Source: a virus
Taxonomy: Duplodnaviria > Heunggongvirae > Uroviricota > Caudoviricetes
Strand: one strand, 5' to 3'
DNA: 64,000 bases
Virus record (IMG/VR): IMGVR_UViG_3300043436_002205
Shown here: positions 2,297 to 62,840 of the stretch, piece after piece
How the letters are laid out: each line of letters starts with the position of its first letter
Numbering within the stretch: the first letter of the stretch is position 1
Program-made: the position numbers and the translations under genes
Notes under the pieces: model-generated
Databases searched by the model: none
What the model was told of the DNA's origin: nothing
The model's input: only the letters and a program-made list of their open reading frames with translations

Positions 2297-2306
2297 TTCT
2301 ATCTAC

Positions 2307-4585: not shown

Positions 4586-4595
4586 TCTATCAACC

Positions 4596-45504: not shown

Positions 45505-46014
45505 TTAAGAGATCCCGGTGCTTCCGAAACCTCCGTTTCTTTCCGTCTTCTGAGACGGTCTCTCTTCTACTTCTTCGATGGTATACACCAAAGTCTTCTC
45601 AAGCATTGCCTGCGCAATGCGTTCGCCATCCTCGATGATGACTACTGCATCCGATGTATTCTGTAGAATCACATATGTTTCTTCTACATAATCGGAATCT
45701 ATAATACCGGTTCCATTCGCAAGAACTAGACTCTTTTTTAGCGACGAACCGGATCTCGGATATATCTTTAGGACGTGACCTTCTGGAATATCAAAGATAA
45801 GACCAGTTGGTATTAACATTTTCTGCATTGGATACAACTGCACGCATACTTTATTATTGATAACACGCGCATGTGATACAGATTCTTTATTTAGAGCATT
45901 GTAGTACGTGATCTTGCTGTTATTATCAAAACATGCTTTAATATCAAAGCAAGCAGAACCGGTCGTAGAAAACTTTGGTAGTTCTGCTTTTTTATTTAAA
46001 CGAAACGCCTTCAT
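45505..46014 (-). CDS. dut: Trimeric dUTPase
   Basis: SACFDI, IPTG, YPRSG, GIIDSDY, ERIAQ, RNGGFGSTG. Confidence 0.95.
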   Translation of the reverse strand: MKAFRLNKKAELPKFSTTGSACFDIKACFDNNSKITYYNALNKESVSHARVINNKVCVQLYPMQKMLIPTGLIFDIPEGHVLKIYPRSGSSLKKSLVLANGTGIIDSDYVEETYVILQNTSDAVVIIEDGERIAQAMLEKTLVYTIEEVEERPSQKTERNGGFGSTGIS

Positions 46015-46904: not shown

Positions 46905-47085
46905 GCGCTTCATCCTTTATATCTGCAAAATCGTCAAAAGTTTTTGCGCATTCACTGCACATCTTTGCACTGTGAAGTCCTTCTGTAGATGAGTACTGCA
47001 GAGTGAACGCGCTGCTTTCTTTCAGATCTGTTTTACAAAAGAAACAGACTTTTGGTTTTTTAGAAAAGAAAGAAAGCCAACTCAT
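46879..47085 (-). CDS. Small CxxC..CxxC zinc-finger protein
   Basis: CFFC and CSEC; overlaps both neighbours. Confidence 0.55.
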   Translation of the reverse strand: MSWLSFFSKKPKVCFFCKTDLKESSAFTLQYSSTEGLHSAKMCSECAKTFDDFADIKDEAHASRFDSF

Positions 47086-48035
47086 TTATAGCTGGCCTCG
47101 AACATTACCTCCGTCAAGAAGGCAACCATATTGACTTCGTGGTCGGCAACGAAGCTAGACTTATACATATAATCAGCAAGAGTAACGATAAACCCTGGAA
47201 GACTCTTAAGTTCTACACGGTCTGTTGCGGCGTCATAGATGGTACGAAACATTTCATTCGCGTCTTGGTCACTGTTATTCGAACACCACTTGCGCATCTC
47301 AACGAAGTTCTTTTCTTTCAACATCAAAAAGAGTTGTTCGATCGACTCCTGCTTGATGTTTGTGAAGATACCCTCATCGATCCTACCTGATGCTGCATAA
47401 GATTGAAGTTCGGTAAGTACACGCCGAAAATCTGGGAAATGCCTTTCGATAATCTTTGCGACGACATCCTTATCGTGTTCTACGTTTTCTGCGTTTAGAA
47501 TTGCGAGAACACGTTTATAGAACTGAGCAGCCATCTTTGGACGATCTGACTTCTCAATCGTAAAGTCAACTTCAGAAAGACGAGAACGAAGTGGCTCGAT
47601 AACACGGTTCTTAAAGTTACACGTAAAGATAAAGCCACAGTTCTTTGAATATTCTTCGATAAAGTTACGAAGAGCAGGCTGAACGTTAGCTGCATTGAGA
47701 TAGTCGGCTTCATCAAGGATAACGTATTTACGACCACCACTGAATGAAACGGAAGATGCAAAGGTCGAGATCTCGTAACGAAGAGTATCGAGGTTAACAT
47801 TCAACGAACCGTTCTTTACGATGTAATCGCAACCGAGCTCGTTCAGCATTGCTTTCGCAATTGTGGTCTTACCCATACCTGGGCCACCAGTCAGTAGCAG
47901 GTTAGGAATGGATTTATCTGCAACGAATCTTTTGAAGACATCTTTAGTCTTCTGAGGAAGAATTGTATCCTCAATGACTCTGGGTCGATAACGTTCAACC
48001 CAGAGTACTTCTTCAGTATTTGTATCAAGTGCCAT
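47082..48035 (-). CDS. gp44: Clamp loader large subunit gp44
   Basis: LWVERYRP, GGPGMGKTT, ILDEAD, SRL, FPDFRR. Confidence 0.97.
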   Translation of the reverse strand: MALDTNTEEVLWVERYRPRVIEDTILPQKTKDVFKRFVADKSIPNLLLTGGPGMGKTTIAKAMLNELGCDYIVKNGSLNVNLDTLRYEISTFASSVSFSGGRKYVILDEADYLNAANVQPALRNFIEEYSKNCGFIFTCNFKNRVIEPLRSRLSEVDFTIEKSDRPKMAAQFYKRVLAILNAENVEHDKDVVAKIIERHFPDFRRVLTELQSYAASGRIDEGIFTNIKQESIEQLFLMLKEKNFVEMRKWCSNNSDQDANEMFRTIYDAATDRVELKSLPGFIVTLADYMYKSSFVADHEVNMVAFLTEVMFEASYK

Positions 48036-48263: not shown

Positions 48264-48929
48264 TTACTCTCCTTTCTTGTACGTTGACTTAGAGTCAACA
48301 CCAACGTAATAGGATACATCAGCACCCTTGAAGAGCGATACACCCTTTGCGCAGAGAGTCACTTCGTAATCCTGAGGAAGCAACTTAAAGTTGTCAGTCT
48401 TAAGGATGAGAGTAAACGTGTCGTTGGTGGTACCAATCTCTACACCAAATGCGTCTGACGATTTGTTATTACTGTCGATTGCTCGAAGGAAGCACTTGCC
48501 ATCTTCGCCGACGAATGCGATTTCGCTAAACTGCAAAACACCAGCAGCCTTGATCACAGACTGAAGATCGGACCATTTCACGCTAACCGAAACGTCGGAA
48601 GAAGGAATGGCGATTTCTTTTTCTGGAGCTGCATGGACCATCGAGATGTCTGCATAGACATATTTCATCTTAAGCTTGCCTTCAGAGATGATGAAATGAT
48701 TTTCAAGGAATTCCACATCTGGGTCTTGATAAAGGCTCAGCATCGAAAGAAAACGTGAGAGATCATAGATAACAGCAGTGGTTGGGAACTGATCTTCAAT
48801 GTTTGCGATGGCGATGAAGTTTTTTTCCGGAGTAATCGTACGCAAGACCTGGCCAGGCTTCAGTACGATTGATTTGTTGATTGTAGCAAAACTCTTGAGA
48901 ATTGTAAGAGTGCGGTCAGAAAATTTCAT
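48264..48929 (-). CDS. gp45: Sliding clamp gp45
   Basis: TLTILKSFATINKSI, IYDLSRFLS, LPQDYEV. Confidence 0.95.
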   Translation of the reverse strand: MKFSDRTLTILKSFATINKSIVLKPGQVLRTITPEKNFIAIANIEDQFPTTAVIYDLSRFLSMLSLYQDPDVEFLENHFIISEGKLKMKYVYADISMVHAAPEKEIAIPSSDVSVSVKWSDLQSVIKAAGVLQFSEIAFVGEDGKCFLRAIDSNNKSSDAFGVEIGTTNDTFTLILKTDNFKLLPQDYEVTLCAKGVSLFKGADVSYYVGVDSKSTYKKGE

Positions 48930-48996: not shown

Positions 48997-49875
48997 TCAC
49001 GGTCTAAATGCTTGTTTCTTCTTTTCTTTATATGTCTTTTCGTTTGATCTCTTTCCTGCGGTTGGCGTTTCACCGATAGAAGCGATCGCGCCCATCGATC
49101 CCTTAAAGATATACGAACCGACGTGCTGCAGTTCCATCCAAGGACACAGGTGCAACTTAATTCCCACTTCTCTTGCTTTGCGACAGAAGAAGTAATCTTC
49201 AGACAGGTACCGCTTTGAAATAGGATCGATAATGCAATCAAAGAAAGCGGTGATCTCACGCGAACCATCGAAGTTCTTCGTGCGAGCGTGGTCAGGAATA
49301 TACTTGAGTTCTGGGTATGCGTCTCTGTATTTTTCCAACACGGCTCGAGGTATAAGCATAAATCCGGTACCAGCCTCGCTCACTTCGATAGGTTGGTCAA
49401 TACGGAAAGACGTGGTTCCCTTTGCTGGGTTGAACACGTAGTCGGCTGTATAGAAGTCCAAGTCGAAAGGATTCTCCGCCTTTCCCATCTCTACCGCCTT
49501 CTTTACCTTTTCCCAAGCAATCGTTTTCTTTGGATACGGACCAGTCATGATATCATACTGATCCGGGTGCATGGTCTGAATACCGAGCATCGACAGTACA
49601 TCATTAGGTCTGAAACCAATATCAGCATCGATAAACATAAGATGTGTGCAGTCTGACCTCATGAATTCATCTACTACATAGTTCCTTGCCCTTTGAACTA
49701 AGCTTTCATTAAATAGATAATAGAACTTAAGATCGATGTTGTATTTGGCACAGAGAGATGCTAGGTCGTTCGTAGATTTACAGAACATTCCTGCGCACTG
49801 CCCACCATACATCGGCGTTCCAACAAAGATAGAATATTTTCGTAGGTGTTCTGCTGTAATCTGTAGTTGCATCAT
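48997..49875 (-). CDS. GT-A-like nucleotide-sugar transferase
   Basis: TPMYGG, ESLVQRARN, LMFIDADI (DxD), GTGFMLI, YLSEDYFFC. Confidence 0.7.
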   Translation of the reverse strand: MMQLQITAEHLRKYSIFVGTPMYGGQCAGMFCKSTNDLASLCAKYNIDLKFYYLFNESLVQRARNYVVDEFMRSDCTHLMFIDADIGFRPNDVLSMLGIQTMHPDQYDIMTGPYPKKTIAWEKVKKAVEMGKAENPFDLDFYTADYVFNPAKGTTSFRIDQPIEVSEAGTGFMLIPRAVLEKYRDAYPELKYIPDHARTKNFDGSREITAFFDCIIDPISKRYLSEDYFFCRKAREVGIKLHLCPWMELQHVGSYIFKGSMGAIASIGETPTAGKRSNEKTYKEKKKQAFRP

Positions 49876-49884
49876 TTTTACTCC

Positions 49885-50508
49885 TTATGATAGTTCAAGA
49901 TCGTTCTCTGCGCGATAGATCTGCTGAAGACGAAGAACGTCAGCGAGAATATCCCAGGAACTATCGTGTTTCTTAAATACTTTATTCCACTTGTCAGAAT
50001 CAACGAGCGGAGAAAACGAGTTTTCTTTTGGAAAGTTAAGTTTAGCATCAATAAACGTACGCGTATCACGAACACGCCAATACTTAAGATACTCATCAAG
50101 ATGCAGAAGCTTTCCTTCGGCTGCAAAGAGTCGTGATAGGATGATTGGATCGAAAGTATTCGAACGACTCCACCAGTAATCTACCTTTGGAGACTCAATA
50201 AGGAATTCGTGAAACTGCTTTACAAATTCCTTCACAGTCAGGTCAGATTTCTTTGGAGCAATGTTTGCACGAACTTCAGGACTCTGTTCTTCCCAGAACT
50301 GAAGAGTACTCTTATCAATCTCGAAACCATAGTTCTTTACCTGATCCGTCACGGATAGTTTAAAACGTTTCGCGTAGGAGATACTCTCGATCGTATAAGG
50401 ATTTGTTAGAAAACGATCGAAGTCAAAGACCATGACTGAACAGTCGATAACGGCGCACTTTCCTGCGTCCTTACCCATTGTCTCAAAGTCAATAATTAGG
50501 TGAGTCAT
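49885..50508 (-). CDS. dexA: DEDD 3'-5' exonuclease (DexA-like)
   Basis: IIDFET, WSRSNTFD, VRDTRT, HDSSWD. Confidence 0.8.
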   Translation of the reverse strand: MTHLIIDFETMGKDAGKCAVIDCSVMVFDFDRFLTNPYTIESISYAKRFKLSVTDQVKNYGFEIDKSTLQFWEEQSPEVRANIAPKKSDLTVKEFVKQFHEFLIESPKVDYWWSRSNTFDPIILSRLFAAEGKLLHLDEYLKYWRVRDTRTFIDAKLNFPKENSFSPLVDSDKWNKVFKKHDSSWDILADVLRLQQIYRAENDLELS

Positions 50509-51722
50509 ACAAAGAATCCTTCAAGTGTTGCGTTTTGACTTCCCGAACCTAGCGGGTCGTACTCGTTCTTTTCGTAGTGATTGTTCTGACGAAGATAGTT
50601 TGTTCCGGATAGAGGAAGCTCTCCGCGAATGAACTTGGCGATTTCAGAATGAATATCGCGCGACGTAGGAACCGGAACGTTCTGAGCGATGTGGTTCATC
50701 TTTGCGAGTCCACCGACCAATTCAAAATCGTGAGGGAAACCCATCATATGCAGAGCTTCACGAATCGTAAGCGAACGATCGTGAATAGGATGGATCGTAT
50801 CAGCAAGGTTACGACCAATCACAGCGTTCATGCATTCGTCAAAGACGTGTGTTGAGCTATCCCAGATACCCTTGTTGTCCGCAAACTTTTTAATAGCGTG
50901 TTCCGATACTTTAATTCCGCGTTCGTGGCCAACCTGATGCATCCACTTATTTGCTTCTTCAAGCAGACCAGCACGATTGATATAGTTGAAAGCTGTAATG
51001 TTACCGCTCTTAATAATAACATCCCTCGGATTGTCGTTCGTTCTTGATTTAATAAACGCGTAATACGGTTCATCATCCAACTTGGAATTGATAACCAAGT
51101 CTTGCTGAAGCGTGTTCTGTTGCAACTCGGACAAGTACTCTTTAAAGTTTTTACGATCGCGTTTAAACCAAGACATGATCGGAGCCTTCTCTGATTTCCA
51201 GCCGATAGCAAAGGTTCGATCGCGAGCTTGCGGAATGCCGTGATACATCGTTGATGTTTTGTACAGAGTTAAACTATACCCTCTTTTATTACAAATGTCA
51301 AACAAATTGTTTGCGACTGCACGACCTTTATTCGTATAGAGAGCAGGCGCGTTCTCGACTACTACAGCCTTTGCTTCAAACAGATCAATCGCGTCCTCGA
51401 AGACTTTATACATCCATTCGTTCTTTGCACAAGCAGCACCTTTTGATTCAACTGTCTGACCTGTGTTTAGCTGCGATAGAGCTGCACAAGGAGGAGTACC
51501 AGAGACAACATCTACCTTATGAATAGGTGGGCCGTTATCCAAGAGTCGATACTCGAGTCCTCTGCCCTTTACGTTATTCTGATAGTTTACGTAGTGACTA
51601 TCGTTTGCTTGAAATCCATCGTATGAATAGATAGCAAGAGGTGGAACGCCAAAAGCTTTTTCGGCTCCTAGCATCTGTCCACCGATAAGTGGGATATGAG
51701 GTACCCAAGTAATATCACTCAT
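50505..51722 (-). CDS. C5-cytosine DNA methyltransferase-like protein with atypical SAM motifs
   Basis: GTPPC, VVENA, PQARDR, RSLTIRE, GFP; motif I is IPLIGG and motif X is AQNVP. Confidence 0.8.
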   Translation of the reverse strand: MSDITWVPHIPLIGGQMLGAEKAFGVPPLAIYSYDGFQANDSHYVNYQNNVKGRGLEYRLLDNGPPIHKVDVVSGTPPCAALSQLNTGQTVESKGAACAKNEWMYKVFEDAIDLFEAKAVVVENAPALYTNKGRAVANNLFDICNKRGYSLTLYKTSTMYHGIPQARDRTFAIGWKSEKAPIMSWFKRDRKNFKEYLSELQQNTLQQDLVINSKLDDEPYYAFIKSRTNDNPRDVIIKSGNITAFNYINRAGLLEEANKWMHQVGHERGIKVSEHAIKKFADNKGIWDSSTHVFDECMNAVIGRNLADTIHPIHDRSLTIREALHMMGFPHDFELVGGLAKMNHIAQNVPVPTSRDIHSEIAKFIRGELPLSGTNYLRQNNHYEKNEYDPLGSGSQNATLEGFFV

Positions 51723-51735
51723 TATTCTTTATCCT

Positions 51736-52980
51736 TTATACGAAAAAATCTGCAAGTGTTGTTATAGTCTTTTTTTCAAATGCTTGAACATCAGGACGAG
51801 TGTAGTTCGTGTCGAAAGCATTCATAATCTTATCATTAATAAAAGTACCATCGTAGTACTCAGGCTTAAGCACTGCCTTGCGTAGTTCCTTAAGAAGGTT
51901 CTGATGCGCTTCATGTGTATCTACCATCTCCATACGGCGAAAGAACTCTTCTGGAGTCTTTGGACGTAGAAACTCTGGAATTGGTAGATGACCTTGCATA
52001 TCATAGGTCGGATGCAGGAATGGAATAACACCAGCATGGATCATCTCAATATACTTAGATGTAACCCAGCCTTCCTTAATCGGAATGATGAAAGTAAACT
52101 TTACGTCCTGAAGTTTCTTCTGCAGCTCGTTGATGTGCAACGATCCTTTAAACCGAGAGTCAACAGTTGCTGCACCATGTTCCCACTTGCCATAGACTTC
52201 AACGTTATCGAACTTGTTGAGAACCCATTCCTTCAGAAGGTCGTAGCGAGACGGCTTGCCTTCGTTAAGAACGACCATAAAGTTTGTGTTACGATTTACG
52301 TTGACTTCTTCAGTGTATTCGTAGTCTCCGCAGAAGGCCGTCTCCATACCTGCATATTCCGAATGAACTACGCGAGTGATGCGTTCCTGATCAACATAGT
52401 CGCGAATCGCAAACGTTTCATAATCATAATCATACTGACCAAGAGAACGCATTGGCATGTGAAACAGATCGCGAGGTTGCTTAATCGTATAGCGAGGATC
52501 ATTAACGATTTCAATATACGGAACCTGCTCTTGGTTCAGCCAAGTAACGATTGGAGTCGTATACCACTTGGTCATATCGAGAGTCGCAGCAGGCTTTCCA
52601 TCGTTACCTTCACGAACCTTCTGAATGCGATCCGGAATCGTAACGTTGCTGAGCTGACCAACCATCATAATGGTAAAGTCGAGAGTAACTTTCTTTTCTT
52701 TAAAGTAATTGACGACGTGATCAAAGTACTTCTGAGAAATCTCAAGACCAACACCTTCCCATACATCAATCACGTTATCGTATGGAAAGAGATCTGCTTT
52801 CTCAGATTCTGTAAGAGTACCGAAGTCAGAGCGACCAACGATATAGAACTTCTTATCAGGATTGTTGTTCGCAACTGCTCGTAGTGTGCAAGAAGCTTCG
52901 TTGTCTCCGCCGATAGGCGAGTACTTATTCGTCTTAAACTTTACAGATTTACCAATCTTGCAAAAACCAATGTTCTTCAT
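51736..52980 (-). CDS. GT-B DNA glycosyltransferase, T4 beta-glucosyltransferase-like (likely start MKNIG)
   Basis: N-terminal MKNIGFCKIGKSVKFKT and C-terminal VEVYG...FKGSL...WVTSKYIE.. pattern resemble BGT; ATGA-coupled to the HAD gene. Confidence 0.7.
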   Translation of the reverse strand: MKNIGFCKIGKSVKFKTNKYSPIGGDNEASCTLRAVANNNPDKKFYIVGRSDFGTLTESEKADLFPYDNVIDVWEGVGLEISQKYFDHVVNYFKEKKVTLDFTIMMVGQLSNVTIPDRIQKVREGNDGKPAATLDMTKWYTTPIVTWLNQEQVPYIEIVNDPRYTIKQPRDLFHMPMRSLGQYDYDYETFAIRDYVDQERITRVVHSEYAGMETAFCGDYEYTEEVNVNRNTNFMVVLNEGKPSRYDLLKEWVLNKFDNVEVYGKWEHGAATVDSRFKGSLHINELQKKLQDVKFTFIIPIKEGWVTSKYIEMIHAGVIPFLHPTYDMQGHLPIPEFLRPKTPEEFFRRMEMVDTHEAHQNLLKELRKAVLKPEYYDGTFINDKIMNAFDTNYTRPDVQAFEKKTITTLADFFV

Positions 52981-53342
52981 AGTGTATCCCATTCTATAAA
53001 TTTCACAAATTCATCTGGCCTTAGAGCCTTATCATCAACGTAGTAGACCGCATTCGGTTTACCAAACATTAGTTCATCGTATGGAACGTTGTTTTCTTTA
53101 AGCCAATTAACCGTAAGATCGCCAACATCCTCTATGACTTTATTTATATCACCATTATGAGTGGCCATTCGCCTCGCAGTAAACAGAACGATACGAAAGC
53201 CCTTTTCTTTTGCTTTACGAATGCTTTCGATCATTTCGAGTTTTGGTGTCGCCTTGCCATACTTTTCGAACGTATCCTTCTCGCCATCGTTAGGCGTACA
53301 GATCGTATGATCAATATCAATGACTAGAGTTTGCGTACTCAA
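52977..53342 (-). CDS. HAD phosphatase (capsule-biosynthesis BcbF/EcbF-like)
   Basis: VIDIDHTI, LFTAR, VPYDEL.FGKP, YVDDKA. Confidence 0.85.
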   Translation of the reverse strand: MSTQTLVIDIDHTICTPNDGEKDTFEKYGKATPKLEMIESIRKAKEKGFRIVLFTARRMATHNGDINKVIEDVGDLTVNWLKENNVPYDELMFGKPNAVYYVDDKALRPDEFVKFIEWDTL

Positions 53343-54825
53343 TTACATATTCCTTCATTTGTTCCTGTCGAATAGAGCTGTCATAGTGAAGAGGAATGGC
53401 TGTCGCGATAAGCAATGCGCCACCATCGATGATCTCACGATACTCTTTTGAATAATACTTTCGAATAATCTTTGAGAAACTTTCACGAACATACTTAGGA
53501 TACGCCTTGCTCTGAAACAGCGAGTTGTATCCATGATAGAGATCGTGAGAGAGTTTACACAGGTCGTATAGATGATCGCCGCCGCAACCAACATGATTGC
53601 CGTATTCTCCACGAGGATCCAAGAGAGTAATGCTATCGTTATATGGATTATACAATATATTTCCAAAATGTAAATCGCCATGCATAGCCAGAACAGGCTC
53701 AGCTCGGTTCATACATCTTTCAGCGATCCGCCCGTAATATCCTTGCTCAGAAGAACTTAGGCCAGACTTATTGAGTCTTTCAGTTGTCTTTTGGATCCAC
53801 ATGGCATTTGCGTTACTGCTAAAGTCTTTTAGAAACTCAAGACTAGGTCTCTGATGAAAGTTGTTTCGAACAGAAAGTACAACCTTTTCAATTAGATAGT
53901 CGATAGTACTCTTAGAAATGTCCTCGTGGATGAATAGATCCGAGAGCAGAGTACCGGACTCATAAGACAGAGATAGGCCGTAGTCATCATCTAGCACCTT
54001 TGGAACGAACATTCGCTGCTTTGAATTGAGAGCTTTGTACCAAGACTTTTCGTTCATGACAGTACGAACAGCGAACTCATTCGTATAGTTTGGTACCTTC
54101 GTAACTACGTTGAGTTCTGGGTCGTACTGAAACGAATTGAATGCACGAGCTTTAAAAGTAAGGAACTCTGCGCATGTACGATGATACGAAGCAATGTCAC
54201 CAATGTCGTACCAGTTGCTCGTATTAATACGGTTAAAAGATCTTGAAGTTGAACGCGCATACTTCTCAAGGGCAAACGAGATGTCGTACTCAGTCGCTGA
54301 GGAGAACGCATAGTCAGCGCCTACACCATCTGCGAAACTATACAGGCCAACGAGTGCAGCAGCATTTGGAACCGTCTCCGTTGGTTTATTGAAGAATTCC
54401 TTACCATCCCACATACACCACGCAAAGTGGTCTTCAACTTCTTTCGTAAGAAGAAAGTCGGTGCCTAGTGGAAGATCATTATCAAGAATGATTGCGTCTC
54501 CAAGCCATACGACGAGCGGCATATCTTTATTCGACAGCTCTGCAATACCAACACGAATAGCATCACGGGGACCGTTCAACGATCCCTGCTTTACGCAACG
54601 AATATCATCGCTATAGGCACTCTTTGTAGCCCATTCACGAATATCATCATGCTTGCCGTCAACGATTACGATCTCTCCGATATCTGGAGTATTCTTATAG
54701 ATCGACTCGATGATGTACTCGATTGTTGGTTTACCATGTACGCGAACCATTGCTTTGGAACAGTTCGATGTTAGCGGCCGAAGACGAGTAGCCTCACCCG
54801 CCGCTGGAATTACTACGTTGATCAT
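53317..54825 (-). CDS. Nucleotidyltransferase fused to an APH/choline-kinase-like sugar kinase (likely start MINVV)
   Basis: IPAAGEATRL..SKAM, WLGD, WYDIG; HGDLHFGNI, LLDPRG, YDLCKL. Confidence 0.85.
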   Translation of the reverse strand: MINVVIPAAGEATRLRPLTSNCSKAMVRVHGKPTIEYIIESIYKNTPDIGEIVIVDGKHDDIREWATKSAYSDDIRCVKQGSLNGPRDAIRVGIAELSNKDMPLVVWLGDAIILDNDLPLGTDFLLTKEVEDHFAWCMWDGKEFFNKPTETVPNAAALVGLYSFADGVGADYAFSSATEYDISFALEKYARSTSRSFNRINTSNWYDIGDIASYHRTCAEFLTFKARAFNSFQYDPELNVVTKVPNYTNEFAVRTVMNEKSWYKALNSKQRMFVPKVLDDDYGLSLSYESGTLLSDLFIHEDISKSTIDYLIEKVVLSVRNNFHQRPSLEFLKDFSSNANAMWIQKTTERLNKSGLSSSEQGYYGRIAERCMNRAEPVLAMHGDLHFGNILYNPYNDSITLLDPRGEYGNHVGCGGDHLYDLCKLSHDLYHGYNSLFQSKAYPKYVRESFSKIIRKYYSKEYREIIDGGALLIATAIPLHYDSSIRQEQMKEYVIEYANSSH

Positions 54826-55462
54826 AATGTGTTCTCCATTCGTCATATTCATCTTCTAATAAAGCCCAGTGCAGCTTTGTTGAACGATCGAAGTTGCTCG
54901 ACCTTCTGTCCCAGACGATCCACATATATGCGATCATGCCGCCAAGCTGATGTGTCTTATTTATGGGCTCTACTAAGCCCGAACCAAAATTAATTCTATC
55001 ACTTAGAAATATAATATCACTTGGAGGGTATTTTGTAAACAAGTTTTTTCGCTTCTTTCCTTCAAGAAACGTAAGACGAACAAACATTGCTACGTATGGA
55101 TATTCCGATAGAGCTTTCTCTGTAATCTTTCGAGGAAGATCCTTATGATACGGAGGGTTCGTAATCAAACCTTCGTATCCGGTTGGTCGTTCGAGCTCAA
55201 GAACATCAATGCTAGTTTCGATGTCTACGAGACTATTATCATATTCGTTAAGATCGAACGATTTTACATTATGACCGTTTCTTTGGAGTTCGATCGAAAT
55301 ATTACCTCGGCCCGCGCAGGGTTCAACCACATTCTTTGGTGGACGAACATACTTACACAGAATGTAAGTTGCGAGTGGCGGTGTTGGATAGAAGTCGTTT
55401 TCTTTACGATCTGGGTCGTCCTTCTTTACACCAACGTATATATCAGTTAAGTTCTTAGCCAC
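54794..55462 (-). CDS. Amino-group (N6A/N4C) DNA methyltransferase
   Basis: NDFYPTP, VEPCAGRG, ITNPPY. Confidence 0.8.
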   Translation of the reverse strand: MAKNLTDIYVGVKKDDPDRKENDFYPTPPLATYILCKYVRPPKNVVEPCAGRGNISIELQRNGHNVKSFDLNEYDNSLVDIETSIDVLELERPTGYEGLITNPPYHKDLPRKITEKALSEYPYVAMFVRLTFLEGKKRKNLFTKYPPSDIIFLSDRINFGSGLVEPINKTHQLGGMIAYMWIVWDRRSSNFDRSTKLHWALLEDEYDEWRTHYDQRSNSSGG

Positions 55463-55806
55463 TCTTTACATTCCTTTAGACAATTGTTTTCATATTCTCT
55501 ATCGTTTAGCTTTCGGTTCAATGGAGACGGGTGCGGAAGGGTATAGTGTTCCACTCCTGCTCGCTTAAGTGCCTGCGAGGCAAAACCACCGAGAGCAATT
55601 ACCTTCCTATATCCATTCACAAAGGATCGAACAAAGTTTAGATCAACATCCTTCATCTTGTACTCGCCTTCGTATGGAATTACATTCGAAAAAGAATAGT
55701 GATGGAAACCGAGAGCTTCCATCCATACATTCATCTTATCTAACGAACAGTTCTTACGAAAAGGTTTTCCTGAAGGGTTGATACCAACGAGAATTACTTC
55801 ACTCAT
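55447..55806 (-). CDS. Uracil-DNA-glycosylase superfamily protein, minimal
   Basis: LVGINP (motif A), SN, VIALG, LPHPSP (motif B). Confidence 0.7.
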   Translation of the reverse strand: MSEVILVGINPSGKPFRKNCSLDKMNVWMEALGFHHYSFSNVIPYEGEYKMKDVDLNFVRSFVNGYRKVIALGGFASQALKRAGVEHYTLPHPSPLNRKLNDREYENNCLKECKEWLRT

Positions 55807-56273
55807 TCAAAGTTCCAATGACGCTCGTTGATATAAGTAATCGAGACACCAGCCTCTTCATACATCGGCCGAGACATTCCATTCCACTGGTTCTGCCACT
55901 TCTCAGGAGAATGTTCAGGGTACGTGATCACGACTCGTTTAATGCCGGATTGAATGACCGACTTAGTGCACTCAGCACAGATTGGCAGACCCCATACGTA
56001 GATCGTTGCGTCTTTGACGGATACGCCACTATAGAGTGCATTCATCAGAGCATTCATCTCGCCGTGAACGATACGTGGATACTTTTGTTCACGATCATTA
56101 AGACGCTCCTCGGTATCTTCAATACCACGAGGAAACCCGTTATATCCGGTCGCAAGGATACGACGTTCATCATTAACGATTACAGCGCCAATCTTGCTCG
56201 AAGGATCCTTACTCCAAGTTGAAATCTCGCGCGCGAGTTTCATAAAGCGGTTGTCCCATTTACTATCAATCAT
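55803..56273 (-). CDS. cd: dCMP deaminase
   Basis: SKDPSSKIGAVI, TGYNGFPRG, HGEMNA, PICAEC. Confidence 0.95.
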   Translation of the reverse strand: MIDSKWDNRFMKLAREISTWSKDPSSKIGAVIVNDERRILATGYNGFPRGIEDTEERLNDREQKYPRIVHGEMNALMNALYSGVSVKDATIYVWGLPICAECTKSVIQSGIKRVVITYPEHSPEKWQNQWNGMSRPMYEEAGVSITYINERHWNFE

Positions 56274-56439
56274 TTATCTTACTCCATTTAATTCCAAAGA
56301 AGAGTCTCTGCATAAAGCGATGAAAAGCGTTTGGTTGCTTGCCTTCTTCTAAGTTCCAATATACGCCGTTTATTAGTTGGCACTTCCAAGCAGGTTCGGG
56401 TGGTGCGGAGATAGTATAAGTTACACCTATATCACGCAT
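56266..56439 (-). CDS. 57-aa protein MRDIGVTY...KQPNAFHRFMQRLFFGIKW (missed by the track)
   Basis: Hand translation; fills the gap and overlaps both neighbours. Confidence 0.6.
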   Translation of the reverse strand: MRDIGVTYTISAPPEPAWKCQLINGVYWNLEEGKQPNAFHRFMQRLFFGIKWSKIND

Positions 56440-57094
56440 CCATCAACTCCTCGATGAACTTGAAGTGGCGTTCGTATACATGCAGGTTCGTTGCAGTCCA
56501 GATGAGATCACCGACTCCAACTCTAAGGTCCGCAGCAAGTTTCTTTTGAACATGCATTGCCCAGTGAACATCGTTGTCATAACCGAACACTGCGTCGTTC
56601 GAACGCATCAGATAGTGGCTGATGAGTTTACCGTCACGGATCATAAAAGTGTTTGCATAGGTGCAGATGAAATCTGACATATCGTCTTCGTAATAGTCAG
56701 TATGCATGGAAGGACGATTGTAGATCATGACAGCACGGCGGCTGTTAGGGTTATTCAAAAGTTCAGTAAGAACGTTCATATACTGAAAACCGTTCTTTTC
56801 AGACCAAATGAGATGACCATAGTTTGAATTGATACGACCATGTTTTGAAGCAACATTTTTCCAGATCGCAGGAGTCTCACCAGGAATATCTTCAACATAC
56901 AGAGACTGCGACTCGTACCATTCGAGTTCACGTTCGATGTATTCGTAGTTTGGTTTACGAATGATCCAATCCTCATCAGCGATAAAGGATTGTCCGATAA
57001 GCTCGATGGTTTTAACACCGGTCTTATCAGTCACAAAGTCTTGATCACGATACTTTTGAATGAGTTGATTGCGAATATTAAAAACTCTTTGCAT
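56432..57094 (-). CDS. gp42: dCMP hydroxymethylase/hydroxylase (T4 gp42-like thymidylate synthase homolog)
   Basis: INSNYG, SRRA.MIY.RPSM, DFICT, MRSND.VFG..ND (Asp at the dCMP-specificity position). Confidence 0.9.
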   Translation of the reverse strand: MQRVFNIRNQLIQKYRDQDFVTDKTGVKTIELIGQSFIADEDWIIRKPNYEYIERELEWYESQSLYVEDIPGETPAIWKNVASKHGRINSNYGHLIWSEKNGFQYMNVLTELLNNPNSRRAVMIYNRPSMHTDYYEDDMSDFICTYANTFMIRDGKLISHYLMRSNDAVFGYDNDVHWAMHVQKKLAADLRVGVGDLIWTATNLHVYERHFKFIEELMDA

Positions 57095-57578
57095 ATTCCA
57101 TTACTCCATGTCTCATATATTTTTGAACGATGCTCATATCAGTAATTGTACCAATAAGAGTCATTTTGTCAATAGGAAAGTGAGCAACGTATCGCTTATC
57201 ACGAGTATTTTGTCTGATTACAAAATTTCTTTTACCGAGAGGAGGGGCACTGTAAATCCTAAGGACTGGATCATCAGGCTCTGGGCGTTGACAAAAGATA
57301 AGAATGTCGACATTCATACACTTGCTTAGCTGATTGCTATGGATGCCACTCGCTTTTTCATTTGATGAGATCGGAACTGTAAAACTATTGAACATATGAA
57401 AACGCGTTTCCAACTTATTCTCTAGAGAATGGTCTTCACCGTTCACGGTAAGAATCAAATCTTTATCAGCGTCGAACGGATCTTTAGAAAGTTTAGCCGT
57501 GATGCCTCGCTTAGAGAAAAATTCTACGATAAGATGCTCGATGTCAACGCCGAGTTGTCTATCTGCTTGAGTACCCAT
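57078..57578 (-). CDS. Putative PD-(D/E)xK nuclease
   Basis: G.DIE..IV...DPFD.DKD....ENK spacing. Confidence 0.4.
   Translation of the reverse strand: MGTQADRQLGVDIEHLIVEFFSKRGITAKLSKDPFDADKDLILTVNGEDHSLENKLETRFHMFNSFTVPISSNEKASGIHSNQLSKCMNVDILIFCQRPEPDDPVLRIYSAPPLGKRNFVIRQNTRDKRYVAHFPIDKMTLIGTITDMSIVQKYMRHGVMEYAKSF
57145..57172 (-). promoter_or_regulatory. Sigma70-type promoter for gp42 (inside the upstream ORF)
   Basis: TTGACA-16-TACAAT. Confidence 0.5.
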
Positions 57579-58123
57579 TATTTAAATCCTTTCAAAAATT
57601 GCTCAACAGAAGGAACGGTGTTTGCAAATCCGCCATTGATGCTGATGTTGATATGAAGCTTGTGCATGCAGGAAGAAACGGTGTATGCTTCGATAAAAGC
57701 AGACATCGTTTCATTGTATTCATGTAGAGATTTCTCAAGACTATCGCCGTCGTCACGAGCAGCGATAGCTTCAGGATCATCAGTCAGAAGAATGAGAGCT
57801 GCTTCTGGATAATTACGAAGATACCGATAGTCCAACTCATAGATATCAGCTGGGTTTGCACCACGATACTTCTCGCCATAGACAGCCGCGCCAAGGTGAA
57901 AGCGGTCGAAGATCACATCATAGAAGTAGTCGTCAACGAGCATCTGACTCGATTGAAACAACGACTCGTAGTGTTTAATTTCCCATGCATTTGGGTCCTC
58001 TACCTTAGGAGGAGAAGACGAGTGATGCACGAGAATGTTTGGCGATGTAAAGTGTCGCTTACGTAGATGTTCAACGAGCGTTGACTTACCACAGCGATCC
58101 ATACCTTCAACGATGAGTAGCAT
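57578..58123 (-). CDS. dNMP (thymidylate-kinase-like) kinase
   Basis: IVEGMDRCGKST P-loop, IFDRF. Confidence 0.85.
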   Translation of the reverse strand: MLLIVEGMDRCGKSTLVEHLRKRHFTSPNILVHHSSSPPKVEDPNAWEIKHYESLFQSSQMLVDDYFYDVIFDRFHLGAAVYGEKYRGANPADIYELDYRYLRNYPEAALILLTDDPEAIAARDDGDSLEKSLHEYNETMSAFIEAYTVSSCMHKLHINISINGGFANTVPSVEQFLKGFK

Positions 58124-58131
58124 TATACCTC

Positions 58132-58596
58132 CTATTTTAGTTGTTTTGAGAAAGGAAGATTGTGTAGTTCACTTTCACTAAGATATCGACTAGTAAGATT
58201 TTGTTCTATAGTGCGATTTACTTCTACTTCACCGTTAATAATATCACCAGTCAAAGGACATGTCAATGATATTGGCATCTTAGGAGCAGCAACAGCATAA
58301 ATGTCAATCTTAGACTCTCCAAGTTCCTTCATCACTCTAAGAATACGTCTATTTGTTGCATCACCACGTTTACTCGCGCCACCTTTATACTTATCAACAC
58401 GACCGTACCACCCACGAGAACCACCGGCAATGCCGATCTTCATTAAGCGACCTTTTACATACATAAAGTAAACGATGTTGCCCATGTCACGAAAGTTAGA
58501 CCACGTCTTATCAGTAACATAATCTATCTCTGTTTCCGTGACATTGAAATGCCCGATATATTCAGCCGTTTTCGCGAGTTCAGAAATTGACTTCAT
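58132..58596 (-). CDS. denA: GIY-YIG nuclease resembling T4 endonuclease II
   Basis: NIVYFM..KIG...GRVDKY...DAT..RI...KIDIYA...E; layout parallels EndoII (from recall). Confidence 0.6.
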   Translation of the reverse strand: MKSISELAKTAEYIGHFNVTETEIDYVTDKTWSNFRDMGNIVYFMYVKGRLMKIGIAGGSRGWYGRVDKYKGGASKRGDATNRRILRVMKELGESKIDIYAVAAPKMPISLTCPLTGDIINGEVEVNRTIEQNLTSRYLSESELHNLPFSKQLK

Positions 58597-59108
58597 TTGG
58601 TTTTCCTATGTTTTACGAAGTTTTTATACACGATTGGTTCTGGATGTACTTTGATACCAACTGCACTATAACGATCACCATTTTCCGGCATCATTCTTTG
58701 ATAGCCAGCTTCGTTTAGCATCTTATCTTCTTCTTTAGTTACGAAGACGATGCGATTATGCTTACTTAAGAAATCATAGATCGATTTCTCGTCAGTGCAC
58801 TCCTCTACCATCTTTTGAATGAGTATGTTTAGAGGAACGACGTGTTCATGAATACCAAACTTCTTTAAAGCATCGCCACCAGCTGGCTTGCCAAGAGACT
58901 CCCACTTCTCTTTAAATCTTTCGGACATATAGGCGAAGTCAGGACTATCAATGCCTTTATCGATCCCGAGTCTTTCGTGAGTAGCTGCATTGTAAACATT
59001 GCAGAAAATGTATCTCATGGATCGAGTATCGTTAGAATTGTATTTTGCTCCTGAACGTATGTCGTTCAGGAGCAACTTGATCATTGTAAGATTTGTTTCT
59101 AAAGTCAT
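58593..59108 (-). CDS. Hypothetical protein with HEHVVP motif (possible HNH-like)
   Basis: IHEHVVPL; otherwise unrecognised. Confidence 0.4.
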   Translation of the reverse strand: MTLETNLTMIKLLLNDIRSGAKYNSNDTRSMRYIFCNVYNAATHERLGIDKGIDSPDFAYMSERFKEKWESLGKPAGGDALKKFGIHEHVVPLNILIQKMVEECTDEKSIYDFLSKHNRIVFVTKEEDKMLNEAGYQRMMPENGDRYSAVGIKVHPEPIVYKNFVKHRKTK

Positions 59109-59353
59109 TATCGGTATCGAGTGTATACATAGACGTCAGCAGACGTGGCGTAAGGAAGAGGAAGCGAGTCATTGTAGCGACGAACTCCGCGACGATGACC
59201 GCGACCCTGCAGCTTGACATACTGAGTGGTACCGAAAGCAGTGTTACCAAGCTTGACGACGGTACGCAGACCGTCAACAGCGGCTTGGTCCTCAGGAGCA
59301 ACTTGGCCGTTAACCATACGAACAGTGAAGCGATAAGCAGAAGTGCGAGTCAT
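59108..59353 (-). CDS. Small basic early protein
   Basis: Own sigma70 promoter and SD. Confidence 0.6.
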   Translation of the reverse strand: MTRTSAYRFTVRMVNGQVAPEDQAAVDGLRTVVKLGNTAFGTTQYVKLQGRGHRRGVRRYNDSLPLPYATSADVYVYTRYR

Positions 59354-59382
59354 AGGATGGTTCCTTTCCTTTTCCTATTGTC

Positions 59383-59411
59383 AATCTATACTGATTCTAA
59401 ACGAATGTCAA
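59383..59411 (-). promoter_or_regulatory. Early sigma70 promoter
   Basis: TTGACA-17-TAGATT; spacer contains GAATCAG. Confidence 0.75.
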
Positions 59412-59414
59412 TAG

Positions 59415-59585
59415 TTAAGAAGCGAAGTTGCGGTCCTGAAGACCAACTTTTTTCGCACCCTTTGCCCAGGCGCCCGACTTACCGCGCCAGGTCTTAAACC
59501 GCTTGCGAGACGGCGAGAGAACTTTTACCTCACCGCCGTTAGCGGCGAAATTTGCGACGAGCTTTGCGATGTCAGTTTTAGTCAT
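59415..59585 (-). CDS. 56-aa basic early protein MTKTDIAKLVANFAANGGEVK... (missed by the track)
   Basis: Hand translation; AGAGGAG SD; own promoter. Confidence 0.75.
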   Translation of the reverse strand: MTKTDIAKLVANFAANGGEVKVLSPSRKRFKTWRGKSGAWAKGAKKVGLQDRNFAS

Positions 59586-59611
59586 AGTTGTTCTCCTCTC
59601 GTTATAGATAT

Positions 59612-59640
59612 AGAATATCTGATTCGGGAGGAGATGTCAA
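59612..59640 (-). promoter_or_regulatory. Early sigma70 promoter
   Basis: TTGACA-17-TATTCT; spacer contains GAATCAG. Confidence 0.75.
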
Positions 59641-59643
59641 CCA

Positions 59644-60060
59644 TTAAATGAGAACATTTGGAAGGTGGCCATGATTTCCTTCATGAGATGGAGCTTGCCA
59701 ACCCTCAGGCTTGAGCAGATCCGGCAATCCAAAAGGATTCGGGCGCCCAGGCTTGACACCAGGAGACTTAGACATGTTTGCTTCGTATACTTTATCCCAA
59801 GCAGCCTTTGCATCAACACCAAACACGTCGAGAGTACCGAGTGCAAAGACAACGAGATCGATGAGACCGTCGACTACCTCTTCAGAATCTTTTGCGGCGT
59901 ATGCAGCGACCGTTTCGTCAAGTTCTTCCTTGCACATAGAGAGACGGAACTCAAGATACTTGTCCATCAGATCTTTGTCGTGCTTGTTCTTTTCGAACCA
60001 CTCGTGCACTCCAAACTTGTTGTGCATCATATACATGTCATGGATAAGGTCAGCTGACAT
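59644..60060 (-). CDS. All-alpha NTP pyrophosphohydrolase (MazG/PRA-PH-like)
   Basis: KEELDE...EVVDGLIDL...VYEANMSK. Confidence 0.85.
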   Translation of the reverse strand: MSADLIHDMYMMHNKFGVHEWFEKNKHDKDLMDKYLEFRLSMCKEELDETVAAYAAKDSEEVVDGLIDLVVFALGTLDVFGVDAKAAWDKVYEANMSKSPGVKPGRPNPFGLPDLLKPEGWQAPSHEGNHGHLPNVLI

Positions 60061-60311: not shown

Positions 60312-62840
60312 TCACATAAAAAACGATTCGAGACTCGCAACCTTCTTGGATCTCCAACCGATCGCTTCAAGAATGCTTTCGATAGGTCCCAAGAAAACTT
60401 TTTCAAACTGAGTGTTATAGTCAATGTACTTGTCCACGTTGAGTTCCTTTGGAAGAACGTTAGGAAACGAGATTACATTTTCTTTAATCGGGTTTGGTAT
60501 ATTGAGATACACGATCTTAATCTTGTCACCACCACGGATCAGCTGATACCTATTCTCTAGCTTGTTTTCCTTCAAAGCTTTGTTGTATAGGATCGAACCA
60601 CGAACGTGCATTGGGCAACCTCTTTTGTAGTCATTGCCTACCATGTACTTTTCAATATCGTCGGTACCAGAGATCTTTGCGATGTCTTCAGCCGGAAGAT
60701 TAAAGAACTCTTCTCGGAAATCTTCGATGAAGATTTGCACGTCGGACTCTGAGCCGTTCATAATCACCTCGAACGACTTTTTCATCTTCTCACGGCAAAC
60801 TTCAGGAGTCGACGAACGAACCGACTCGATACCGGTAACACTGATCTTTGGCTTTGCGTAGTGAACACCTTCAGAGTTGAGAACGTTCATAATGTATCGC
60901 TTTTTGGCGACGAACACAGACTTATCTGTAATCTTTTCGCGTTTCATAACCATCGCGTTACGGCAAGCACCCATCTTTTTTGCGAGGTTCTCGTATCCGA
61001 GAGCGATGACCGCCTCGAGCTTTTCCTTACATACGTTGTCAAGGAATTCTTCACCGGTCTTTCGATCGATGTCTGTTGTTCCGAACACTGCCTGGATAAG
61101 AGGACCAAAGTTCACGTAGATGGAGTCGGTATCGATATAGACGATGTAGTCTACATCGGTCGTCTTTAGTACTTTATTGAGATATTTGTTGACAGATTTT
61201 TCGGCATAACGAATTGACAGTTGACCTGAAGTGGTAATCGCTTCTGCCATCTCGCCGATATAGTAAAGGAAGTAGACGTTTGCGGTCGCACCATATAGAG
61301 AGTTCATAGCAATCTTAATCGCCATCTGAGAGTTATGCAGCTGAGTCATCTGCTTCTTCAGATCCTTCTTTTTGTCCGGATCCTTCTCGTTTTCCATGGC
61401 TTGTTCAACAGCAAGCATTTCTTTCTTGATCTTTGAACGATTGCCATAGTACTCGTCAATGATCTCAGGAATTACACCTTTTACTTTATTGGTAAAGCAG
61501 ACGCCATTTGCGCATGCAGAATATTCGGTGTCTGTGTTTTCAAACTGATCGTTAAGAACCATGTCTTGTGTAACATAGACTCTCTTATCTTGCATATGAG
61601 TCTCAGGCGACATATTATACTGAAGCATCAGATGCGGATACAGAGAGTTAAGGTCGAACGATACGATCCACTTATGCATACCGACCTTTGGATCCTTCAC
61701 GTAACCACCGACGAGATCCTTTCCACGATCACCAGGACCACCCTTGATCTGCGGAACACGATTGTCTCGAATAAGTCGACGATACAGAGTGGTTTCCCAG
61801 ATACCAACGGTGCCGAAGGCATCGCTGAAGTTAACGCCGCCGCCATATGCGACAGTCATAACGAGAGCGAGAAGAGCCGTTTCGTCTTCGAACTGTTGAA
61901 TGAGCCATGTATCCTTGAGGTTATAGTCGAGATACAGTTGCGGGTTTTGATCGTATAGAGCCGTAAGGTTACCATACTCGGAATAATCCAGCTTCTTTTC
62001 GCCAAGGATAACGTGAGCGATATGATCGAGTTTGTAGGACTCTTGAGGACCATACTTATAACCGAACTTCTTAAACGCGTCCATATAGTCAATCACGGTC
62101 ATACCAGAGATTGCATATGTTGACTGTGGCTTGCCAAAGATCTCTCGAGTATTCTTACGAATGGATCCCCACGGCGACAGCTTCTTTGCAGTATCCTCGC
62201 CAAACAGACGAATGATACGAGTTACGATGTACATAATGTCAAAGTACTCAACGTTCCAACCGGTTACAACATCGGGATAGTCGTTCTGCCAGATCTGCAT
62301 GAACCTACGAAGCAGAGCCTGCTCAGTGTCAAACTTCATGAACTGAATGTTTTCTGGATCGATCTTAAGAAGAGTCTTGCTCTTATCATAATCTTTACGA
62401 CCGAGCAGATGATACGTATCAGACTTAGACGATTTAATCGCGATCGAGGTAATCTCTTTATCGGCTTCATCGATGTTGGCATAACCGTCTCGAATATCAA
62501 CTTCGATGTCGAACGAAAAGATGTTAATCTTTTTCATATCGAACTGAATGTTGTCAGGATATTGTTCTTGAATAAACTGAGTTACGTAGTTTGTGTTGCC
62601 GTGGATCTCAAGGCCACGAACGTCTTTGTGGCGTTCAATAAACTCTTTTGCTTCAGCCATCGAGTCACAGACTCGCGGACCAAGTGGCCGATCACCAATC
62701 AGCGACTTATATGCGCCGTCCTTGGATGGAAGAAAGAGCGTTGGACGATACTGATGGCGTCGCATGAACTGCTTTCCATCTTCATATCCACGCCAGAGAA
62801 TTGTATTGCCGTATCGTTCAACGTTCGTATAGAAATTCAT
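60312..62840 (-). CDS. gp43: Family B DNA polymerase gp43
   Basis: FDIE, GWNVEYFD, SFDLNSLYP, KIAMNSLYG, YIDTDS. Confidence 0.99.
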   Translation of the reverse strand: MNFYTNVERYGNTILWRGYEDGKQFMRRHQYRPTLFLPSKDGAYKSLIGDRPLGPRVCDSMAEAKEFIERHKDVRGLEIHGNTNYVTQFIQEQYPDNIQFDMKKINIFSFDIEVDIRDGYANIDEADKEITSIAIKSSKSDTYHLLGRKDYDKSKTLLKIDPENIQFMKFDTEQALLRRFMQIWQNDYPDVVTGWNVEYFDIMYIVTRIIRLFGEDTAKKLSPWGSIRKNTREIFGKPQSTYAISGMTVIDYMDAFKKFGYKYGPQESYKLDHIAHVILGEKKLDYSEYGNLTALYDQNPQLYLDYNLKDTWLIQQFEDETALLALVMTVAYGGGVNFSDAFGTVGIWETTLYRRLIRDNRVPQIKGGPGDRGKDLVGGYVKDPKVGMHKWIVSFDLNSLYPHLMLQYNMSPETHMQDKRVYVTQDMVLNDQFENTDTEYSACANGVCFTNKVKGVIPEIIDEYYGNRSKIKKEMLAVEQAMENEKDPDKKKDLKKQMTQLHNSQMAIKIAMNSLYGATANVYFLYYIGEMAEAITTSGQLSIRYAEKSVNKYLNKVLKTTDVDYIVYIDTDSIYVNFGPLIQAVFGTTDIDRKTGEEFLDNVCKEKLEAVIALGYENLAKKMGACRNAMVMKREKITDKSVFVAKKRYIMNVLNSEGVHYAKPKISVTGIESVRSSTPEVCREKMKKSFEVIMNGSESDVQIFIEDFREEFFNLPAEDIAKISGTDDIEKYMVGNDYKRGCPMHVRGSILYNKALKENKLENRYQLIRGGDKIKIVYLNIPNPIKENVISFPNVLPKELNVDKYIDYNTQFEKVFLGPIESILEAIGWRSKKVASLESFFM

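Follow-up and report, generated by a model that had tools for sequence, protein, structure and literature searches.

Predicted T4-style cytosine hydroxymethylation joined to a phage-encoded sugar-donor module in an uncultured T4-like phage

Which modified base is made by the 11-kb locus at positions 48997-60060 of the viral DNA analysed here, and which of its genes take part in making it? The window, i.e., the whole 64,000-nucleotide stretch that was analysed, is the reverse strand of positions 81630-145629 in the 217,966-bp IMG/VR record IMGVR_UViG_3300043436_002205, rated complete, and belongs to a T4-like phage of about 218 kb known from metagenome only. Its family-B DNA polymerase finds its best matches among cultured phages in cyanomyoviruses, no identity exceeding 45%, and a megablast search of the 11-kb locus against cultured phages returned no match; the phage is therefore regarded as a distant, uncultured T4-like phage. 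The initial annotation had joined 14 genes of the locus into a single cytosine-hypermodification pathway that might lead to a new base or glycan.

It is proposed here that the locus encodes T4-style replacement of cytosine by 5-hydroxymethylcytosine (5hmC) together with self-supplied glycosylation, and the probability of this reading is put at roughly 0.75. The scheme itself is known; what is new is the combination of a T4-type hydroxymethylase with a donor module of Afh architecture lacking the isomerase and with a GT-B glycosyltransferase resembling T4 BGT. This core of the initial annotation, namely a T4-style hydroxymethylcytosine pathway, a phage sugar-donor module and a BGT-like DNA glycosyltransferase, is supported by homology and fold. 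According to the open reading frame (ORF) listing of the window, the locus consists of 18 minus-strand ORFs running from 60060 down to 48997. Overlaps of 1-59 nt are found at 12 of their 17 junctions and gaps of 8-61 nt at the other five, in agreement with the initial description of co-oriented and mostly overlapping genes. The cluster genes discussed below all lie on this strand, and their coordinates are window positions.

The modified base and its sugar

The identity of the base depends on the thymidylate synthase (TS) homologue of the cluster (56432-57094), a ThyA-superfamily protein matching the gp42-type structure 1b5e (E 1e-70) and Pfam Thymidylat_synt (E 3e-18), whose catalytic Cys in FICT aligns with FMCT of 1b5e. 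When it was compared with all phage records, the identities were bimodal, 52-58% to T4-type enzymes and about 25% to those of the Mosigvirus/Dhakavirus type; the protein shares 55% identity with Tequatrovirus gp42 and 25% with the RB69-type (Mosigvirus) enzyme. The RB69 gp48 type yields 5-hydroxy-dCMP and can be recognised by Asn at the position of E. coli ThyA D169, while Asp at ThyA N177 confers dCMP specificity and an acidic residue at L143 is linked to water access (Lee et al., PMC13326640). In the alignment, the protein has Asp at both the N177 and L143 positions, within the motifs MSDFICT and MRSNDAVFGYDND, and keeps Asp at D169, whereas the RB69-type sequence in the same alignment has Asn there. 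Asp at D169 and N177 is likewise present in every TS homologue that was scored in related environmental loci. By these residues the TS homologue is a T4-type dCMP hydroxymethylase and not an RB69-type 5-hydroxy-dCMP synthase, with 5-hydroxymethyl-dCMP (5hm-dCMP) as its predicted product. Hypermodification of thymidine through 5hmU was also considered and is ruled out by the Asp at the N177 position.

The first gene of the cluster encodes an all-alpha NTP pyrophosphatase of MazG/PRA-PH type (59644-60060; Pfam PRA-PH E 4.8e-11, phrog_671), the best PDB match of which is the Deinococcus DR2231 MazG-like enzyme (E 2.5e-6). Searches with it against T4-like, Mosigvirus and Pseudoalteromonas phage vB_Psh_XG4 (XG4) genomes gave no match, and for this reason a relationship to gp56 could not be shown. 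The protein is a candidate dCTP (and/or dUTP) pyrophosphatase in the role of T4 gp56. Since a separate dUTPase-family gene lies outside the cluster (45505-46014, minus strand; PF00692 E 9.4e-19), the MazG-type enzyme would be free to act on dCTP. A thymidylate-kinase-like P-loop kinase (57578-58123; Pfam Thymidylate_kin 27.6 bits with a cut-off of 27, phrog_761) is left as the candidate 5hm-dCMP kinase, because no T4 gp1-type DNMK was found across the genome; similar TS-adjacent kinases recur in Enterococcus phage 9183 and in the environmental locus L093. The cluster also contains a dCMP deaminase (55803-56273; Pfam dCMP_cyt_deam_1 E 1.4e-21, phrog_174). A canonical ThyA is encoded elsewhere in the genome (C1:4364-5248, outside the window; E 4.7e-101) and is the true dTMP synthase of the phage, and no ThyX was found in the genome; the deaminase therefore has the normal T4-like role of feeding dUMP to ThyA.

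Taken together by homology, the MazG-type enzyme would lower dCTP, the gp42-type enzyme would convert dCMP to 5hm-dCMP, and the thymidylate-kinase-like enzyme would phosphorylate the latter, after which host nucleoside diphosphate (NDP) kinase and the phage polymerase would bring 5hmC into DNA; dCMP deaminase and ThyA would sustain the dTTP supply. The similarity to the T-even pathway lies in the hydroxymethylase, which retains all signature residues, in the pairing of dCMP deaminase with a separate ThyA, in the position of the genes next to gp43, gp45 and gp44, and in T4 BGT being the best structural match of the glycosyltransferase. The differences are that the kinase is thymidylate-kinase-like instead of gp1-like, that the pyrophosphatase has no detectable similarity to the searched T4-like genome, that the sugar donor would be made by the phage whereas T4 uses host UDP-glucose, that the glycosyltransferase has a polymerase-type tail and no resemblance to BGT at the sequence level, and that a C5-methyltransferase-fold gene is added.

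The donor itself would be made by a 511-aa fusion (53317-54852) of an N-terminal sugar-1-phosphate nucleotidyltransferase and a C-terminal APH-type sugar kinase (Pfam NTP_transferase E 2.8e-15 and APH; NCBIfam matches of RmlA, GlmU and GalU type), together with a small, 121-aa HAD phosphatase of EcbF/BcbF type (52977-53342; TIGR01689 E 1.2e-23). The fusion enzyme is 22% identical to the PhAPEC2 orthologue of RB69 gp52:53 (AfhE) over 457 aligned residues (E 5e-6) and 27% identical to its counterparts in Enterococcus phage 9183 and XG4. The phosphatase shares 30% identity with the RB69 gp51 (AfhF) orthologue (E 2e-12), and its predicted reaction is the cleavage of the distal phosphate from a sugar bisphosphate. 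In RB69, the AfhE/AfhF pair phosphorylates arabinose-5-phosphate at C1, strips the 5-phosphate and makes UDP-arabinofuranose (PMC13326640). By the logic of this route and of the ADP-heptose route, the APH-type domain would phosphorylate a host sugar phosphate at C1, the HAD enzyme would then take off the distal phosphate, and the nucleotidyltransferase domain would form the NDP-sugar. A comparison of the locus with known 5hmC and arabinosyl-hydroxycytosine (ara-hC) phages gave a T4-type hydroxymethylase, distant Afh homologues as donor genes and no isomerase. The parallel with RB69 drawn in the initial annotation stands as far as the phage-made donor is concerned, and needs updating with respect to the base, as RB69 makes 5-hydroxycytosine and not 5hmC (PMC13326640).

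The clusters of RB69, DLP3 and HY126 that lead to arabinosyl-5-hydroxycytosine (PMC13326640) share with this locus the nucleotidyltransferase-APH fusion and the small HAD enzyme beside a TS homologue, a thymidylate-kinase-like gene and a GT-B gene. They differ from it in the D169 position, which is kept here and predicts 5hmC instead of 5-hydroxycytosine (5hoC), and in their arabinose-5-phosphate isomerase; the proteins are only 22-30% identical and the glycosyltransferases are unrelated in sequence. The lack of a sugar-phosphate isomerase, first noted for the window, extends to the whole 218-kb genome, where neither SIS nor SIS_2 was found although both searches matched in control genomes. 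When the RB69-type isomerase, arabinosyltransferase, kinase and gp50 were used as tblastn queries, neither the window nor any fetched locus other than the T4/Mosigvirus references gave a match. With no isomerase in the genome, the sugar precursor must come from the host.

The missing isomerase had been taken as a pointer to a new sugar. This reasoning had to be abandoned because of contig 53, in which a HAD-APH fusion, a cytidylyltransferase and a GT-B, expressed as three enzymes in E. coli, gave mono- and di-heptosyl-5hmC from host precursors (2023 preprint, 10.1101/2023.12.21.572611). The present locus and this subclass III cluster, compared by architecture and not by sequence, have the same chemical logic and a BGT-like GT-B in common. 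Moreover, a sister subgroup of loci (L042 and others) has a HAD-APH fusion and a PF01467 transferase, exactly the contig 53 architecture, beside a GT-B that is 61-65% identical to the one described here (64% in loci such as L042). The window differs in having a PF00483 transferase fused to the kinase and a separate HAD enzyme, and the 5hmC of contig 53 came from a methylase and a TET enzyme, not from a gp42-type enzyme (10.1101/2023.12.21.572611). The kinase domain of the fusion enzyme and the kinase of the sister subgroup have little in common beyond the catalytic loop, so the sugar of the sister module is not transferable by homology. Shewanella phage Thanatos, in turn, uses a UDP-xylose pyrophosphorylase (PMC12838424). 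A rough estimate puts the chance of a heptose at about 40% and that of a pentose at about 25%, with about 35% left for all other possibilities.

The transfer step is assigned to a 418-aa GT-B protein (51736-52992) that ends in TLADFFV. It has no match in Pfam, PHROG or NCBIfam and no PDB sequence match at E up to 1. Its AlphaFold2 (AF2) model (pLDDT 79.7) has the GT-B fold, with T4 BGT as the top Foldseek match (E 7.9e-8). In VIA, the model aligns with T4 BGT over 315 residues (Z 19.6, root-mean-square deviation 4.2), ahead of the next family by about 2 Z units, with the HY126 glycosyltransferase at rank 9 and T4 AGT at rank 13. The modelled fold suggests that this protein should transfer the phage-activated sugar to DNA, i.e., that it would move the sugar onto 5hmC in the duplex.

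The arrangement is not confined to one genome. The order Pol, MazG, TS, CD, NTase/kinase, HAD, GT-B, methylase-like gene, DexA, GT-A and gp45 is shared by 80 IMG/VR loci, and the set of TS, HAD, NTase/kinase and GT-B is found also in Enterococcus phage 9183 and XG4, where TS, HAD and the fusion enzyme precede the GT-B homologues. Enterococcus phage 9183 (MT939241.1 28004-32956), a Gram-positive siphovirus, encodes a thymidylate kinase, a TS homologue, a dUTPase, a HAD enzyme, a transferase/kinase fusion and a GT-B homologue. Its TS homologue has Asp at N177 and D169, and its locus is without a methylase-like gene; the gene content suggests glycosylated 5hmC in this group. The unannotated XG4 record (PP712099.1 100-6580) contains TS, HAD, fusion, GT-B, a second GT-B-like gene and a methylase-like gene, and XG4 is the best cultured experimental stand-in for the locus.

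The C5-methyltransferase-like protein and the shared tail

The gene next to the GT-B gene (50505-51722) encodes a protein with the fold of C5-cytosine methyltransferases and the C-terminus TLEGFFV. It matches PF00145 at E 3.2e-22 and 79.8 bits (cut-off 22), the match beginning only at profile position 36, and the top folds for its AF2 model (pLDDT 83.6) are M.HaeIII, a prophage enzyme and a Cx-SAM carboxymethyltransferase. Its family is large, with 740 relatives after 90% clustering and 379 representatives of 50% clusters at E ≤1e-30. Across 135 diverse family members, which keep the PC, ENV-Glu and QxRxR motifs, the catalytic residues Cys79, Glu123, Arg167 and Arg169 do not vary, and an insert of the size of a target recognition domain (TRD) is retained with few gaps. 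The cofactor-binding motifs are altered throughout the family: motif I reads PLIGG in place of the canonical FxGxG, motif X reads QNVP in place of GN(A/S)V, and in a hand alignment to M.HhaI, the ribose-binding Glu that closes strand 2 is replaced by Ser.

The genomic surroundings of this family were sampled in seven contigs carrying diverse members (32-46% identity), a sample and not a census; six had informative flanks and one short contig was uninformative. A GT-B homologue (29-49% identity) lies within a few kb of the methylase-like gene in five of the six informative contexts, while the sixth has AGT-like and TAGT-like glycosyltransferases with HAD and fusion-enzyme homologues instead. 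The two genes are paired likewise in XG4. This recurrent adjacency makes the GT-B and the methylase-like protein a conserved pair, and together with the family-wide motifs it upholds the earlier view that the methylase-like gene is a conserved extra of the pathway. Phage pathways that combine a C5-methyltransferase, a TET enzyme (5mYOX) and a glycosyltransferase (PMC8256090) are similar in linking a gene of this fold to DNA glycosyltransferases and sugar-nucleotide genes. They differ in that 5hmC here would come from the gp42-type enzyme and in the altered cofactor motifs of the protein. No TET/JBP gene is listed in the seven sampled contexts either, and a search of the genome with PF12851 gave no match, the control genomes being silent as well.

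A further feature of the protein is its C-terminal tail. The cluster is flanked on one side by the gp43 family-B DNA polymerase gene (60312-62840, minus strand; Pfam DNA_pol_B) and on the other by the genes of the gp45 sliding clamp (48264-48929, minus strand; Pfam gp45-slide_C E 9.2e-13) and the clamp loader (47082-48035). The polymerase ends in SLESFFM, and a tail of this [ST]LE[DE]FF type is found only on the polymerase, the GT-B and the methylase-like protein, being absent from GT-A, DexA and the fusion enzyme. It is conserved in 78 GT-B homologues, in close members of the methylase-like family and in polymerase homologues, which end in T[IL][ED]DFF. In T4 and RB69, the C-terminus of the polymerase docks on gp45, and therefore replisome tethering is the natural reading of the tail. 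A clamp-peptide structure is reportedly available for RB69, and an interaction of T4 alpha-glucosyltransferase with gp45 is said to have been observed. By this analogy, the shared tail is probably a clamp-binding tail, with gp45 as the docking platform for all three proteins, and the GT-B would probably be held at the replisome in this way. The gp45-binding peptides of T4 and RB69 gp43 are alike in that a short acidic-hydrophobic C-terminal tail is common to polymerase and DNA-modifying enzymes; the difference is that the tail is found here also on a GT-B and a methylase-fold enzyme, for which binding is predicted weakly. The complex prediction for gp45 with residues 361-405 of the methylase-like protein gave a score of 0.42 against 0.00 for the best control, with at least 40% contact agreement between runs and a partner pLDDT of about 40. 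Of 80 solved complexes, 58 pass the mark set for such predictions, as do 2 of 110 mismatched pairs, but scores up to 0.60 include only 7 of the 80 solved complexes and both passing mismatches; the result, classed as "weak support", is counted neither way.

The reaction of the methylase-like protein is a debatable issue. Either it methylates cytosines that escaped replacement, or it performs a different covalent reaction at C5/C6. The former amounts to mixed modification, in which replacement by 5hmC is incomplete and a clamp-riding C5-methylase dependent on S-adenosylmethionine (SAM) leaves 5mC beside glycosyl-5hmC. The above-threshold PF00145 match and the fold, the invariant catalytic residues, the retained TRD-sized insert and the lack of a proven dCTPase all speak for this. 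However, the departures in motifs I and X and at the ribose-binding Glu are fixed across the family, the tie of the gene to GT-B and sugar genes across 29-49% identity is unexpected for a stand-alone protective methylase, and no methylation was detected in E. coli for phage C5-methyltransferases of clades III and IV (Burke et al., PMC8256090), to which this protein may or may not belong. Mixed modification is a serious contender, if somewhat short of an even chance.

The other proposal is that the protein is not a methylase and that, tethered to the clamp, it uses the covalent Cys-C6 mechanism with a non-SAM partner and an obligate BGT-like glycosyltransferase partner, giving an undescribed base or linkage. 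In vitro, C5-methyltransferases are able both to attach hydroxymethyl groups and to take them off without SAM. The protein may then hydroxymethylate cytosines escaping replacement, or may activate the 5-CH2OH of 5hmC for exchange. This proposal is speculative and considered unlikely. The new base or glycan anticipated by the initial annotation is possible, and nothing beyond the unexplained methylase-like enzyme indicates it. A text search of the MetaGPA paper gave nothing on methylase, APH or glycosyltransferase.

Several other members of the family are worth noticing. One 598-aa metagenomic member (P0219) is fused to a CXXC zinc finger, and two more, of 768 and 1462 aa, are extended at the C-terminus by long stretches without annotation. 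Two marine scaffolds from ENA (L091/L092) carry a distant member with a GT-B homologue, a sugar epimerase/dehydratase, a weakly GmrSD_C-like gene and two AdoMet-decarboxylase-like genes. Cyanophage S-TIM5 (NC_019516.2) encodes a full-length homologue (30% identity), and the "thymidylate synthase" about 3 kb away has Asp at N177, from which a dCMP substrate is predicted; no GT-B homologue was found in S-TIM5.

Points against and remaining alternatives

A number of points weigh against T4-style replacement with self-supplied glycosylation. The phage is known from metagenomic data, and the pathway steps are read from genes alone. If cytosine were fully replaced, the C5-methyltransferase-like enzyme would be left unaccounted for. 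The best solved relative of the MazG-type enzyme is of dUTPase type, so that the exclusion of cytosine may be incomplete. With regard to the sugar, the fusion enzyme is just 22-27% identical to any studied or cultured-phage counterpart, the identity of the donor is not carried over from the sister subgroup with the kinase similarity limited to the catalytic loop, and the GT-B belongs to no Pfam or PHROG family.

The absence of a sequence family for the GT-B can also be read in another way, namely that the sugar module and the GT-B act on a protein, lipid or small molecule and that their position is incidental. GT-B enzymes of the BshA, MshA and glycogen-synthase type follow close behind structurally (Z 15-17), and the window has a separate glycan cassette near the tail-fibre genes. 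However, T4 BGT is the top match and both other DNA glycosyltransferases rank high, the tail is common to the GT-B and the DNA polymerase, the GT-B gene stands beside a TS homologue or a DNA C5-methyltransferase-fold gene in unrelated phages, and a module with the architecture of the sister phages acts on 5hmC DNA (10.1101/2023.12.21.572611); a non-DNA target is thus very unlikely. An RB69-type pathway, in which 5-hydroxy-dCMP would be the product of the TS homologue and 5-hydroxycytosine the base arabinosylated by the module, can be set aside as the least probable of all, since it has in its favour the fused transferase/kinase and HAD architecture of RB69, DLP3 and HY126, but lacks the diagnostic D169N change, the closeness of the TS homologue to the RB69 type and the arabinose-5-phosphate isomerase, the tblastn searches with the RB69-type proteins being empty in the window and the related fetched loci.

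Genes outside the pathway and wider meaning

Not all genes of the locus can be assigned to 5hmC formation and glycosylation, and the idea that all 14 named genes act in one pathway does not hold. The GT-A-like protein (48997-49875; DAD motif, phrog_1574 E 1.2e-58, weak glycosyltransferase hits), about a third of whose Atlas neighbours are annotated as Anp1 or GT2, is encoded next to gp45 throughout the phage lineage, and orthologues lie beside gp45 in DLP6, Cr30 and the phiM12 group. The one in Stenotrophomonas phage DLP6 is 56% identical, and no gene of the ThyA/thymidylate-synthase family at all was found in DLP6; the GT-A gene therefore does not depend on 5hmC. The DexA-like 3'-5' exonuclease (49885-50508; Pfam Rv2179c-like E 2.8e-20, phrog_255) is a core T4-type gene. 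Two accessory genes are patchy in their distribution. An NPPY-type, Dam-like DNA amino-methyltransferase (54794-55462; phrog_799 E 1.3e-40; FYPTP, EPCAGRG and NPPY motifs) is absent from several related loci. A minimal, 119-aa UDG-superfamily-like protein (55447-55806; Pfam UDG 24.0 bits, under the cut-off of 24.3), for which a PDB sequence search gave no useful match, is present solely in the two closest loci (L008 and L032). The evidence found does not support pathway membership for any of these four genes.

Most of the initial gene names were confirmed by Pfam, PHROG, NCBIfam, PDB or structural matches, with the UDG call just below its threshold, but neither nuclease call (58132-59108 and 57078-57578) was. 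The two ORFs at 58132-59108 (171 and 154 aa), taken as nuclease candidates, have no match in Pfam, PHROGs or NCBIfam. As the 154-aa ORF matched nothing in the T4-like, Mosigvirus and XG4 genomes, a relationship to EndoII could not be shown, and an Atlas structural search with the 171-aa ORF returned only low-scoring matches to HNH clusters (TM 0.35-0.37). A 166-aa ORF (57078-57578) is likewise without a family match and has weak homologues (30-38% identity) at the same position in related loci. Elsewhere in the window, at 1625-5249, the separate glycan cassette near the tail-fibre genes comprises a sulfotransferase-like gene, a 2OG-FeII_Oxy_3 oxygenase, a GT2, a radical SAM/SPASM enzyme and a GT25; none of its genes is TET-like.

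Whether a restriction, CRISPR or type IV system can attack a phage is decided by the hypermodification of its DNA, which is also a source of enzymes for DNA labelling and for sequencing chemistry. The loci described here indicate that abundant uncultured, apparently marine T4-like phages combine the classical T4 hydroxymethylase with interchangeable donor-making modules. Two testable ideas follow. DNA-modifying enzymes may dock on the sliding clamp via a polymerase-type tail, and DNA glycosyltransferases may have a fixed partner in a large branch of the C5-methyltransferase fold that is confined to phages and has remodelled cofactor motifs; the reaction of this partner could be a new one in the chemistry of DNA modification.

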